A stretch of DNA of 64,000 bases, from positions 4,557 to 68,556 of the forward strand of contig PNKK01000011.1 of assembly GCA_013822395.1 (NCBI GenBank), given 5' to 3'. A program made the translations under genes and the position numbers. This DNA is from Anaerolinea sp. (GTDB taxonomy: Bacteria > Chloroflexota > Limnocylindria > Limnocylindrales > CSP1-4). Below, piece by piece: positions 13,974 to 22,843 of the stretch. Position 1 is the first letter of the stretch. Each line of letters begins with the position of its first letter. Under the pieces are notes generated by a model, which saw only the letters and a list, made by a program, of their open reading frames with translations, was not told the origin of the DNA and ran no database searches.

Positions 13974-14019
13974 ACCCTAGCCGGGCGTGATCACAGGGAC
14001 ATCCGTGGGACCACCGAAT
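13974..14019 (-). promoter_or_regulatory. palindrome-plus-promoter element, copy 4 (imperfect)
   Basis: On the minus strand: ATTCGGTGG-TC-CCACGGAT, then 22 nt to TAGGGT, then 6 nt to the ATG of the DUF4242-like gene. The spacing is identical to copies 1-3. It overlaps the LAL stop codon. Confidence 0.45.
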
Positions 14020-16787
14020 CATGGGCGTCGACCCGTGAGCGCGGTCAGGAGTTCCGTCCGCGAGCGGACGTCGAGCTTGCGGTACGCCGACGACAGGTGG
14101 CTCTCGACCGTCCGGACCGACAGGAACAGCTCGTCGGCGATCTCCTGGTTCGTCCGGCCGATGGCGGCCATCTCGGCGACGCGGCGCTCCATGCCCGTCA
14201 GCTCGGCGGGGCTGGCGATCCGGCCGCTCACGCCGGCCGATTCGACCCTGGCTCGCTCCGTCCAGGGCACGCAACCCGCAGCCGCCAGTACGGCGATGCT
14301 CTCCTGGAGCGCCGCCCGCGCCGCCCGGCGCCGGTTCGCACGGCGGAGCGTCGCCCCGAGGGCCAGCAGCGTCCGGCCCCGCTCGACGGCCATCTGGTCC
14401 AGCCCGTCGGTGGCGAGCGATCGCTCGAAACTGCGGATCGCCGCGTCGTCGGCGCCACGTGCCGCCTCGAGGAGTCCGCGTGCCCGGGCCGACACGACGA
14501 GAGACCAGGGGTGACGGCCGCCGGCGGCGCGCTCCTCGAACGTGGCGATCACGTCCTCGGCCTCGTCGAGACGCCCGGTCAGGACAAGTGCTTCAGCGAG
14601 GTCCCCGTCGACCCGGTACCAGCCGGGTTCCGGCAGGCCCATCCGATCGAGTGCCGCCCTCGCGGGGGCGAGCGCGTCGACGGCGGCAATGGGGTCGCCG
14701 ACCGTCAGCTCGAGGAAACCGAGGGCGCCGAGGGCGCGAACCTCGGCCCACGGGTTCCCGACGGCTCGCGCCCGGTCGACGGCGCGGCAGCACCGGCCGC
14801 GCGCCTCGTCGAGGCGGCCGACCGCCGCCCGAACGTGACCGCTCACCGCCCAGATGTTCGCGTCCTCCAGCCCGAGCTCCTCGGCCAGCTCCTCGGCCTC
14901 GTCGGCGCGACCGAGCGCGACCGGGAGGTGCCCGGCGCAGAGCTCCACCCAGGCCAGACAGCGCAGCAGATGGGGCCGCGACGTCCAGTCCCCTTCGCGT
15001 TCGGCCGTGGCCAGGACGGCTTCGATCGCCGCCGCCGATTCGCTGTGCCGGCCGGCGTGGCCGAGGTAGTTCGCCCGGTTGGTGGAGGGGCGGGCCATCA
15101 GCGGCACATCGAGGGCCGCCTCGAGGCGGACCGCCCGATCGATGAGCTCGAAGTTAGGGCCGTGTCCACCCTCGAGGTCGGTGTCGGCGAGCACGATCAT
15201 CGCGGTCGCCACCGACTCCGGATCGTCCGACTCGTGCCCGGCCAGGAGGTCGAGGGCAGCCTGCGCGTGCTCGCGCTCCCAGTCGACGTCGTACCAGGCC
15301 ATGGATGCGGCGGCGACGTGTGCGCGAGCGAGCGCCGCTCGGTCGTCGCCGGCCTCGTCGAGCGCGCGCCGGAGCCACTCCCGCGCGGCTCCCAGCTCGG
15401 CCAGGTCCTGCTCGATCATCGCGAGCAACACGAGCGTCTCGATCCGGCCCGGCCCCGGCGGGAGCAGCACCAGGGATCGGCAGGCAGCCTTACGGGCCTC
15501 CGCCGCTGAGCCCGCGCCGAGCCGGCGCCGGGCGACGACGAGCTCCCGGCGCGAAACGACCACCGGGTCGTCGGTCGGCGAGAGCCGCACGGCGAGCTCC
15601 GCCAGCTCGGCGGCCTCGTCCGAGGCCCCCCGCCGGCGTGCATCCTCCGCGGCTGCGTCAAGGGCGGCGGCCACCGATTCGTGCGGGCCGATCGCGGCGA
15701 GAGCGCGATGTCGGGCGGCCTGCTCCGCGTCGTGCACCACGGCCGCGAGACGCTCGTGGACCTCGCGACGCCGGGCCGGCAGCGCGGTCGAGTAGGCCAC
15801 GGACGCGACGAGCGGATGGGCGCACCGAACGTTCGGCCCGTCGAGCCGGACGAGGTCGGCCGCCACGAGCTGGGGGATCGCCTCGGCGACGGCCTGCTCG
15901 CCGAGGGCGCGCTCGAGCAGCTCGACCGTCGGGTGAGCGAGCGCAGCGAGCGCAAGAAGGATTCGGCCAGCCGACGGCGAGAGCCGGGCGATCCGACCGG
16001 CCAGGAGGGCCCCCGCGTCGCCGGCCACGCGGAGGGGCTCCCCGGGGGTCGGCAGGCGTCCCTGGGCGACGATCGCCCGGGCGAGCTCGAGGGCGAGGAG
16101 CGGGTTCCCGCCAGCCTCCTGCTGGAGCCGTGCGACCACCGGTCGAGGCAACGCCAGGCCGAGCCGATCATGGAGGAGGCGCCCGATCGAACCGACCGAC
16201 AGCCCGCCGAGCACCAGGCGATCGCGGCGATCCTCCGGGAAAGCGAGCTCGAGCGGGGCCGGCTCGGCCGAGCCGGCCCCGCGGCGGGCGGCCAGGACGC
16301 TGACCGGGGTCTTCCCGAGCCGGCGCAGTGCGAACTCGAGGGCCCGGAGCGTCGCCTCGTCGACCCACTGGAGGTCGTCGAGCGCCACCAGGACCGGGGC
16401 CGGTGCCGCGAGCAGGCCGAGCACGGAGAGCACGGCGAGGCCGACCGTGCCGGGATCGGCGTCCGGTCCCCGGCCGGAACTGCGGTCACGGAGAAGGGCC
16501 GCGTCGAGTGCCCGGCGCCGGGGCTCCGGGATGGCCGGCAGCGTGGCGTCCAGCAGCGCATCGGTCAGGAGGCCCGCCAGCCCGGCGAACGCCAGGGGAC
16601 GCTCTGCCTCGCCGGGTCGCAACGCGAGGACACGAAGGCCCGACCGCTCGGCGACCGCGGTGCCGTGTCGCCACAGCGTCGTCTTGCCGATCCCGGGCTC
16701 ACCCTCCACGAGAAGCATGGCCGGGCCGAGACCGACCACGAAGTGCTCGAGCCGCTCTCGCTCGACGTCGCGACCAAGGATCGTCAT
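14019..16787 (-). CDS. LAL-type regulator (AAA/STAND ATPase + TPR-like region + LuxR HTH)
   Basis: Walker A GEPGIGKTTL, Walker B VLVALDDLQWVD, a long helical repeat region and a C-terminal LuxR HTH (RTNQEIADELFLSVRTVESHLSSAYRKLDV). The start is set at ATG 16787 (MTILGRD...) because the upstream part of the ORF translates the repeated promoter element. Confidence 0.9.
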   Translation of the reverse strand: MTILGRDVERERLEHFVVGLGPAMLLVEGEPGIGKTTLWRHGTAVAERSGLRVLALRPGEAERPLAFAGLAGLLTDALLDATLPAIPEPRRRALDAALLRDRSSGRGPDADPGTVGLAVLSVLGLLAAPAPVLVALDDLQWVDEATLRALEFALRRLGKTPVSVLAARRGAGSAEPAPLELAFPEDRRDRLVLGGLSVGSIGRLLHDRLGLALPRPVVARLQQEAGGNPLLALELARAIVAQGRLPTPGEPLRVAGDAGALLAGRIARLSPSAGRILLALAALAHPTVELLERALGEQAVAEAIPQLVAADLVRLDGPNVRCAHPLVASVAYSTALPARRREVHERLAAVVHDAEQAARHRALAAIGPHESVAAALDAAAEDARRRGASDEAAELAELAVRLSPTDDPVVVSRRELVVARRRLGAGSAAEARKAACRSLVLLPPGPGRIETLVLLAMIEQDLAELGAAREWLRRALDEAGDDRAALARAHVAAASMAWYDVDWEREHAQAALDLLAGHESDDPESVATAMIVLADTDLEGGHGPNFELIDRAVRLEAALDVPLMARPSTNRANYLGHAGRHSESAAAIEAVLATAEREGDWTSRPHLLRCLAWVELCAGHLPVALGRADEAEELAEELGLEDANIWAVSGHVRAAVGRLDEARGRCCRAVDRARAVGNPWAEVRALGALGFLELTVGDPIAAVDALAPARAALDRMGLPEPGWYRVDGDLAEALVLTGRLDEAEDVIATFEERAAGGRHPWSLVVSARARGLLEAARGADDAAIRSFERSLATDGLDQMAVERGRTLLALGATLRRANRRRAARAALQESIAVLAAAGCVPWTERARVESAGVSGRIASPAELTGMERRVAEMAAIGRTNQEIADELFLSVRTVESHLSSAYRKLDVRSRTELLTALTGRRP

Positions 16788-16890
16788 CGACTCGTCGACG
16801 ATGCACCTCCTCTGTATGCAGGATGCCACTCGGCCGGCCTCCGCGCGTGGCTCCGCGTCACGGCGCGCAGCCACGGGGTCCGGGCCATGA

Positions 16891-22667: not shown

Positions 22668-22798
22668 CCGCCAGCTGCGCGTGGTCCGCGGTCCGACCGT
22701 GCGAGCCGTCAGCGCGGCCTCCGCGCCCGTCTTCATACAGCCAACGCCATCCTGCGACCCGGCCACGGGGGCGCGCAGCCACGGGGTCCGGGCCATGA

Positions 22799-22843
22799 AT
22801 CCGTGGTTCCACGGATGCCCCGCGCACCGCGGGCACCTACCGT
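22799..22843 (+). promoter_or_regulatory. palindrome-plus-promoter element, copy 3
   Basis: ATCCGTGGTTCCACGGAT at 22799-22816. TACCGT at 22838-22843, 22 nt downstream. Confidence 0.45.

Follow-up and report, generated by a model that had tools for sequence, protein, structure and literature searches.

In this study, we propose that an 18-bp dyad found at four promoters in a 64,000-nt stretch of DNA from Anaerolinea sp. (assembly GCA_013822395.1, contig PNKK01000011.1, positions 4,557 to 68,556; hereafter the window) is very probably the binding site of a LAL-type ATPase regulator encoded in the same region, and that it marks a small regulon of this regulator. The proposal is made because dozens of uncultured soil bacteria share this combination of motif, regulator and target genes. 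The regulator, the dyads with their -10 hexamers and the small gene read from the promoter at the 3' end of the regulator gene are the following, in positions of the window.

14019 to 16787, minus strand: LAL regulator, 922 aa, with an AAA_16 P-loop, TPR repeats and a C-terminal GerE/LuxR helix-turn-helix (HTH)
16891 to 16908, plus strand: dyad copy 1, proposed operator of promoter P1, in the region divergent from the LAL start; orthologous sites in loci L001, L002, L006 and L007
16930 to 16935, plus strand: -10 hexamer TACTGT of P1, predicted transcription start at about 16942
19184 to 19201, plus strand: dyad copy 2, proposed operator of P2
19223 to 19228, plus strand: -10 hexamer TACTGT of P2
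22799 to 22816, plus strand: dyad copy 3, proposed operator of P3
22838 to 22843, plus strand: -10 hexamer TACCGT of P3
14001 to 14018, minus strand: dyad copy 4, proposed operator of P4, directly after the LAL stop codon
13974 to 13979, minus strand: -10 hexamer TAGGGT of P4, 6 nt ahead of an ATG, leaderless
13662 to 13967, minus strand: DUF4242/SCO4226-like gene, 101 aa, proposed target of P4, conserved core

Copies 1 to 3 carry the string ATCCGTGGTTCCACGGAT exactly, all on the plus strand, and copy 4 reads TTCGGTGGTCCCACGGAT at 14018-14001 on the minus strand with three mismatches to it, as a preliminary description of this DNA had stated for the three perfect palindromes and the imperfect one. 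Counted per strand, dyad matches number 7 versus 0.09 expected, and none of 100 shuffles got to 7. A position weight matrix derived from 17 sites found through LAL homologues scores the four dyads alone in the whole window (44.4, 44.4, 44.4 and 41.2 bits), the best of 20 shuffles reaching 13.2 bits. The consensus of the 18-bp dyad is wTCsGTGrTTCCACGGAT, with CCA-N3 kept upstream and a G downstream, and its core TCCGTGG-TT-CCACGGA consists of two inverted heptamers 2 bp apart (7-2-7). A TAnnnT hexamer lies 21 nt past the end of each of the four dyads; the hexamers stand where the preliminary description had placed them, while its distance of 22 nt is the offset and not the gap. Its further claim that copy 4 overlaps the LAL stop needs a similar correction: the two adjoin, but the dyad abuts the stop codon (14019-14021), which sits only in the extended flank ccATGA. 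The position of copy 1 in the region divergent from the LAL start and the leaderless character of the DUF4242-like gene, arranged as TAGGGT-gggccg-ATG (TAGGGTgggccgATG) with 6 nt from hexamer to ATG, both held. No TTGACA-like -35 hexamer occurs at the dyad promoters, where position -35 reads ATGCnn, and a sigma-70 consensus promoter scan of the window reported no sigma-70 promoter at the dyad sites. On the LAL-facing side of dyad 1 there is no TAnnnT at 21-22 nt through which the LAL could be autoregulated.

The regulator itself has an AAA_16 match (E=5e-15) with the Walker A motif GEPGIGKT at residues 29-36 and a Walker B-like VLVALDD at residues ~133-139, a TPR_12 match (E=7e-12, with weaker ones to TPR_2 and TPR_8) and a PF00196 GerE domain that spans residues 863-914 (56.5 bits, cutoff 23.5; E=2e-15). 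Size and P-loop with Walker A, TPR repeats and GerE HTH together make it a bona fide LAL. An autoinducer (AHL)-binding domain is absent from its Pfam and NCBIfam matches, the N-terminus being AAA_16, and of the NCBIfam MalT equivalog model the HTH alone aligns (18.5 bits versus a cutoff of 537). An alternative GTG start lies at 16829.

The dyad accompanies this regulator across a wide range of homologues, four of which are close (84-97% identity), with others forming a group at 50-57% and a broad one at ~40%. The sample consisted of the contigs of 11 independent LAL homologues (39-97% identity) within loci L001-L016. At 10 of these 11 loci a dyad stands 21-22 nt ahead of a TAnnnT hexamer, and at all 11 a PF14026 (DUF4242/SCO4226-like) gene adjoins the LAL or lies at most ~2.5 kb from it. 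In L001, L002, L006 and L007, which are close relatives, the divergent site has been retained along with the stop-adjacent one; the equivalent of copy 4 is likewise in place at L008, L011 and L013, whose dyad promoters read TTCGGTGATTCCACGGAT, CTCCGTGGTTCCACGGAG and TTCCGTGATTCCACGGAT, respectively. L009 has two dyad sites in its divergent region, one per direction, L016 has one site leading to a DUF3558 lipoprotein and one to an operon of a 188-aa protein and DUF4242, and L014, with a LAL of 39% identity, carries ACCGGTAGCGCCACGGAT and TTCCGTAGTTGCACGGAC. In an alignment of 13 LAL-anchored sites the conserved positions are the CCA flank, the dyad (above all its proximal half, CCACGGAT), the next G, and the A and T of the -10 hexamer, the spacer of 20 nt between dyad and -10 being without conservation. 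The dyad is missing from L015 (P0037, 40% identity; 8630-12193), which keeps its DUF4242 neighbour. Here, the recognition helix of the HTH reads VTVKTVERNLSRVYEKL versus SVRTVESHLSSAYRKL in the rest of the clade, making this LAL a candidate for a family member whose operator specificity has switched. In place of the dyad, the LAL stop of L015 has a terminator-like hairpin, CCCCGCTCAAAGTGGGGGGTTTT, behind it.

The same association emerges when the dyad is taken as the starting point. The pattern WTCSGTGRTTCCACGGATG retrieved at least 80 stretches from 185,579 species genomes, and a flank-extended pattern 19 stretches from JGI metagenomes. Among the 101 exact dyad matches listed, 39 have a TAnnnT at a gap of 20-23 nt and 62 have none at that gap; a LAL and/or DUF4242 homologue is present in the short stretch in 33 of the former versus 7 of the latter, and a DUF4242 gene lies directly downstream of 22 of the 39. 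Listed matches without a -10 at that gap belong mostly to Cyanobacteria, Proteobacteria and Firmicutes, or fall within coding sequence. The dyad loci with a LAL/DUF4242 context come from metagenome-assembled genomes (MAGs) of Chloroflexia/Limnocylindria and Actinomycetota, all uncultured. Among the matches listed, a MAG has one to three exact sites, e.g., L043, L077 and L084 in CAWKHG01, which points to a small regulon and not to a dispersed repeat.

When all loci are pooled, 73 non-redundant pairs of a dyad and a (T/C)AnnnT hexamer are obtained. A gap of 21 nt separates the two in 41 promoters and one of 22 nt in 29; the other 3 have 20 or 23 nt. Just past a LAL stop, on the same strand, stand 32 of the 73, a further 14 are divergent from a LAL start, and 27 lie elsewhere or in a stretch too short for a decision; other lineages, too, have a LAL between a divergent and a stop-adjacent dyad promoter, the arrangement of the window. 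In 26 of the 73, a start codon that opens a long open reading frame (ORF) with high G+C at third codon positions (GC3) follows 6-7 nt past the hexamer. These leaderless start codons support a transcription start ~7 nt after the hexamer, which would place the dyad at ~-51 to -34 and its centre at ~-42.5, the value of the preliminary description.

The mechanism that we consider probable is one in which a dimer of the LAL HTH binds the dyad and activates promoters with a -10 element only, in class II fashion and under STAND-type control by ATP and a signal. In this model, the LAL is a P-loop NTPase of the STAND type that combines TPR repeats with a GerE/LuxR HTH at its C-terminus; in its activated form (bound to ATP and signal, and oligomerised) it would place two HTH domains on the two half-sites, the centres of which are one helical turn apart. 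As the dyad would occupy ~-51 to -34 of promoters with a TAnnnT -10 and without a good -35, the LAL could recruit RNA polymerase from ~-42.5 as a class II activator. P4 would then drive the leaderless DUF4242/SCO4226-like gene, P1 a 578-aa lipoprotein (D), P2 a DUF3558-like lipoprotein (E) and perhaps also a 739-aa PafA/Dop-fold membrane protein (F), and P3 a lipoprotein (G), the lipoprotein E' and an Rhs protein. Both the binding by the LAL and activation as opposed to repression are what we infer.

The logic of this arrangement, a LuxR-type HTH dyad at -42.5 and a local activator adjoining its targets, is classical, whereas the proposed regulon of this uncharacterised LAL clade is undescribed; the dyad motif string gave no relevant match in the literature searched. 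GerE/NarL/LuxR HTH proteins bind inverted repeats as dimers, and 7-2-7 inverted heptamers are the arrangement preferred by NarL-family HTH dimers. The dyad shares the two inverted heptamers and the 2-bp gap with NarL/GerE sites, but NarL is a phosphorylation-controlled response regulator with sites at many positions, while here an ATPase regulator is combined with a fixed position. PimM-type proteins bind a dyad overlapping the -35 region. The actinomycete LAL and PAS-LuxR regulators (PikD, AveR, TpdR, PimM) are also pathway-local LuxR-HTH activators encoded beside their targets, yet they control biosynthetic or catabolic clusters, whereas the clade described here, conserved in Limnocylindria, is proposed to control exported lipoproteins, Rhs and DUF4242 genes. 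The GGATG of the proximal half-site presumably recalls the core of the MalT box, GGA(T/G)GA.

An inverted repeat of 20 bp with its centre at -42.5 forms the lux box (PMC3376562), and both LuxR/lux box and TraR/tra box offer a single 18-20-bp inverted repeat at ~-42.5 over the -35 position to a dimer of C-terminal LuxR/GerE HTH domains, with both arms contributing (PMC3376562), which is predicted for the present dyad as well. Different from LuxR and TraR, the regulator is a 922-aa STAND/LAL ATPase with TPR repeats and no AHL domain, the motif sequence is unrelated, and the hosts are Chloroflexota and Actinomycetota, in which these promoters have a TAnnnT -10 and leaderless mRNAs are frequent. 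The model for LALs is MalT (PMC6099782), which has the same architecture of P-loop NTPase, sensor/TPR-like arm and LuxR HTH and presumably the same course from inducer and ATP via oligomerisation to the activation of promoters without a -35. In the case of MalT, however, several asymmetric decanucleotide boxes in direct repeat are bound at variable distance (PMC6099782), as opposed to one symmetric dyad at a fixed distance.

Several points weigh against our interpretation. The negative-control LALs amount to one (L015). Since the scan pattern fixes the proximal half-site, and at least 80 loci are listed, motif statistics from these loci are ascertainment-biased. For 27 of the 73 dyad promoters there is no LAL within the short stretch available, the DUF4242 protein is as tightly linked to the dyad as the LAL is, and the prototype LAL, MalT, departs from a one-dyad operator in the way just described. 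Finally, the end of the dyad and the conserved G (ATGC) form a weak partial -35 (xTGxxx) that may be open to occlusion and hence to repression.

From this last point follows an alternative in which the LAL binds the dyad but represses by occluding the -35 region until a signal relieves it. The dyad does overlap the -35 position, its 3' end with the conserved G resembling part of a TTG-like -35, and -10-only promoters can be constitutively active in high-GC bacteria. The gap of 21-22 nt, on the other hand, is rigid in 70 of the 73 promoters across two phyla, which is typical of class II activators, while repressor operators usually vary. Class II activators must contact sigma region 4. The dyad promoters also lack a TTGACA-like hexamer. 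Among the LALs, at least SCO6993 is reported as a negative regulator (PMC9628970), but activators make up the majority of the characterised LALs and of the LuxR-type proteins acting at -42.5 (PMC3376562, PMC6099782). We regard repression as unlikely and retain class II activation by the LAL.

Alternatively, another factor, either a transcription factor encoded elsewhere or the DUF4242 protein, may bind the dyad, with the LAL as a co-regulated neighbour. The equally tight linkage of the DUF4242 gene and the 27 sites without a LAL in the fetched stretch would agree with this. Yet the LAL is the sole DNA-binding protein consistently encoded at dyad loci, the 7-2-7 dyad fits dimers of GerE/NarL-type HTH domains, the dyad-less LAL of L015 has an altered recognition helix, and dyad matches outside the LAL-bearing lineages are without promoter context. 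SCO4226-type proteins are small ferredoxin-fold, nickel-binding metal binders without a DNA-binding domain (PMC4186839). The DUF4242-like protein of the window scores 29.0 bits with PF14026 (cutoff 28.5) and 17.3 versus 125 with the NCBIfam equivalog NF033706; having barely passed the former and failed the SCO4226 equivalog model, it is a member of the broad DUF4242 superfamily for which nickel binding is not implied. In S. coelicolor, SCO4226 adjoins phoU-phoRP, is under PhoP control and has no link to a LAL (PMC4991794), and the literature searched contained no link between SCO4226 and a LuxR regulator or between LAL and DUF4242. A binder other than the LAL is in our view improbable.

A third explanation, that the palindrome is a mere by-product of recent segmental duplication or of a miniature inverted-repeat transposable element (MITE)-like repeat and has no regulatory role, draws on the repeated surroundings of copies 1 to 3, in which the neighbouring genes form a duplication mosaic. 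Two further features belong here.

16862 to 16953, 19155 to 19246 and 22770 to 22861, plus strand: 92-nt promoter repeat, three copies, 87-95% identity
16988 to 17077, plus strand: 29-aa ORF encoding a lipoprotein signal peptide only, MDRRSRSVLVAPLVLGLLAGCASAGTRAP; truncated paralogue of gene G

The preliminary description had extended this repeat to ~110-140 nt including the 5' untranslated region (UTR). The three-way repeat exists, but it measures 92 nt, and the 5' UTR is common to copies 1 and 3 only, which run on together into a lipoprotein signal peptide (16974-17075 resembling 22880-22981). Copy 2 continues instead like 23452-23556, the 3' end of lipoprotein gene G, and is therefore a deletion derivative. 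Of a G-type gene, module 1 retains just 90 nt and module 2 just the last ~100 nt. The stop of the 29-aa ORF overlaps the GTG start of gene D (GTGA), and this ORF is either a decayed remnant or a coupling upstream ORF. To judge from these repeats, P1-P3 arose from a single ancestral divergent promoter by segmental duplication, each copy being linked to cargo of its own, which would document promoter duplication as a route for recruiting new cargo genes into the regulon. A 25-mer specific to the lineage, CCATGAWTCSGTGGTYCCACGGATG, had no match in JGI metagenomes.

Copy 4, by contrast, has the extended motif (ccATGA-dyad-G), the spacing and the -10 in common with copies 1-3 but unrelated flanks; it therefore stands outside the recent duplication and constitutes independent evidence. 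The dyad is likewise kept, with unrelated flanks, at LAL homologues down to 39% identity. Copy numbers are low and the position is always that of a promoter: the window has four sites and each MAG one to three exact ones, not the hundreds of loci that the preliminary description had named as a sign of a mobile repeat. Terminal inverted repeats and target-site duplications were not found at the dyad copies. A role-less by-product is very hard to reconcile with these findings, and a MITE or dispersed repeat was rejected given the few sites and a conserved part that is limited to operator and -10.

There is just as little probability that the palindrome acts as an RNA hairpin, as a LAL terminator or a 5' UTR structure. 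The perfect 8-bp palindrome could fold, and copy 4 as well as 32 of the 73 sites lie directly past a LAL stop. Nevertheless, the commonest natural variant, TTCGGTGG..CCACGGAT, breaks two of the eight pairs with no compensating change, the 13 independent sites show 82.7% pairing versus 80.1% when shuffled (53 of 500 shuffles being as high), and at the 26 leaderless promoters the dyad is upstream of the transcript. Rfam gave no relevant match at E<=1, and a terminator scan gave no terminator-like site and no U-tract at the dyads; with both scans negative and pairing no better than in shuffles, an RNA element was rejected. The least credible explanation takes the dyad centre, which on the opposite strand is GGAAC, GGAAT or GGGAC, for the -35 of an extracytoplasmic function (ECF)-sigma promoter, an ECF sigma gene lying 1.5 kb from the DUF4242 gene in L006; it was rejected since the orientation is opposite to the conserved -10 at nearly all sites, the one co-oriented case (L009, 14522) has ~29 nt from GGAAC to hexamer, far above ECF spacers of 16-17 nt, and no CGTC-type -10 is conserved. 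CRP sites read GTG-N8-CAC, and a CRP/FNR-type site was rejected as the dyad has GTG-N4-CAC.

With LAL-dependent activation thus preferred, the proposed targets of P1-P3 can be considered. The window has a G+C content of 71.8%, and genes were called by GC3 frame analysis and Pfam.

17074 to 18810, plus strand: gene D, 578-aa lipoprotein of a family without annotation, proposed target of P1
19382 to 19990, plus strand: gene E, 202-aa DUF3558-like lipoprotein, proposed target of P2
20448 to 22667, plus strand: gene F, 739 aa, with a PafA/Dop/GCS2-fold domain at the N-terminus, a single transmembrane helix and a tail rich in Pro and Cys
22894 to 23541, plus strand: gene G, 215-aa lipoprotein, first gene of the P3 operon
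23557 to 24270, plus strand: gene E', 237-aa DUF3558-like lipoprotein, paralogue of E (GC3 frame analysis, translation)
~24425 to 28834, plus strand: Rhs/YD-repeat protein with the lipoprotein signal VFAAC, last gene of the P3 operon

Homologues of these genes were traced by tblastn against all fetched loci. Those of D stand beside dyads in L013 (in the order dyad, D, DUF4242), L062, L073, L027, L098 and L112, and those of G beside dyads in L084, L009, L016, L047, L097 and L103; E/E' homologues occur in L001-L005, L007, L016, L019, L098 and L107, L028 has an F homologue that lies downstream of a dyad and DUF4242, and full-length Rhs orthologues are present in L002-L005 (72%) and L098 (58%). 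Downstream of G and E', the Rhs gene is read in the direction of these two, an arrangement shared with the orthologous operon of L002-L005. Where no DUF4242 gene lies past the dyad, the first ORFs again encode lipoproteins, and the products of the regulon are predicted to be mostly exported or surface-anchored. The recurrence of target homologues at dyads lends comparative support to the claim of the preliminary description that the LAL would control the DUF4242 gene, the lipoprotein modules and probably the Rhs gene, the placement of F remaining uncertain. A compact form of the whole system from another lineage is seen in the metagenome contig Ga0080064_1006746 (L098, 1-12155), where dyads at 3182 (minus strand), 6100 (plus) and 6475 (plus) flank a LAL at 3266-6079, together with DUF4242, E- and D-type lipoproteins and a full-length Rhs orthologue.

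Neither D nor F has a sequence match in Pfam, NCBIfam, PADLOC or the PDB. The D family comprises proteins of 450-620 aa with many invariant residues (e.g., L013 3630-5300, L073 500-2212 and L062 5160-7013) and a C-terminal module of ~110 residues carrying GTWxGTW...SGTW motifs. For F, the N-terminal 481 residues were modelled with AlphaFold from a 63-sequence alignment (pLDDT 86.5). The best structural matches of the model (Foldseek) are PafA (Pup ligase) and Dop (depupylase), with E values of 7e-9 to 6e-8 and TM scores of 0.37-0.50, followed by YbdK/GCS2; on the strength of the model, this domain is a carboxylate-amine ligase fold. The family has more than 120 members in Limnocylindrales, Dormibacteria, Acidimicrobiales and Intrasporangiaceae, with the invariant motifs GxExE, YSTH and RPRxxRxE. 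At the 3' end of F, tandem repeats of 72 nt and less (22423-22641) encode reiterated PTPPPPPQPSPSCDPTGACG, a Pro-rich, Cys-containing extracytoplasmic tail. F is uncertain as the distal member of the P2 unit because it is preceded by a 457-nt gap with a sigma-70-like promoter of its own: TTGAGA-16-TAATAT at 20338-20366 is the only sigma-70-consensus-like promoter of the region, from which F may be transcribed. This promoter comes after a 33-nt tandem repeat in the E-F gap (20083-20236, ~4.6 copies, the last three nearly identical), CGCCGTTTACGAGCGGCGAGCCAGGATCTGGTA.

In the case of the Rhs gene, an ORF of 1742 aa extends over 23606-28834, but its part 23606-24424 (~270 codons) is an out-of-frame overlap with E', and the true start is most likely 24425 or 24446, with its own predicted lipobox. 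The Rhs-associated core ends near residue 1012 of 1469. The ~440 residues after it, with a weak VWD-like Pfam match, are conserved to the C-terminus in orthologues (L003 72%, L098 58%), and by this conservation pattern they do not look like the variable tip of a polymorphic toxin.

The promoters of the window, with TAnnnT hexamers and leaderless mRNAs, are actinomycete-like, although the host is a Limnocylindria-type Chloroflexota and not an actinomycete, to judge from the LeuRS gene at 1998-4553 (minus strand), whose product is 77-84% identical to proteins of Chloroflexota/Candidatus Limnocylindrales.

MalK, MalY and Aes modulate MalT. By analogy, LAL and DUF4242 could form a two-part signalling module, in which the possibly metal-binding DUF4242 protein would be the prime target as well as a feedback modulator or co-sensor, and which would switch on a cell-surface apparatus; we put this forward as a tentative idea only. 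If it is true, this apparatus would consist of DUF3558-type lipoproteins, the 578-aa family, an Rhs shell that is non-polymorphic and lipoprotein-anchored, and a PafA/Dop-fold ligase anchored in the membrane, and, being common to Limnocylindria and some Actinomycetota, would represent a previously unrecognised envelope system instead of a loose co-regulated set.

Among the regulators of high-GC soil bacteria, LAL/STAND proteins belong to the most numerous, yet operators are known for very few of them. Here, a predicted operator with its consensus, half-site asymmetry and fixed -42.5 geometry, together with a conserved target set, is offered for a whole LAL clade from sequence alone, and this in Limnocylindria, an uncultured class without genetics. 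It would also provide a functional handle on families that so far lack annotation, i.e., DUF4242, the DUF3558-like lipoproteins, the 578-aa lipoproteins and the PafA/Dop-fold membrane protein.

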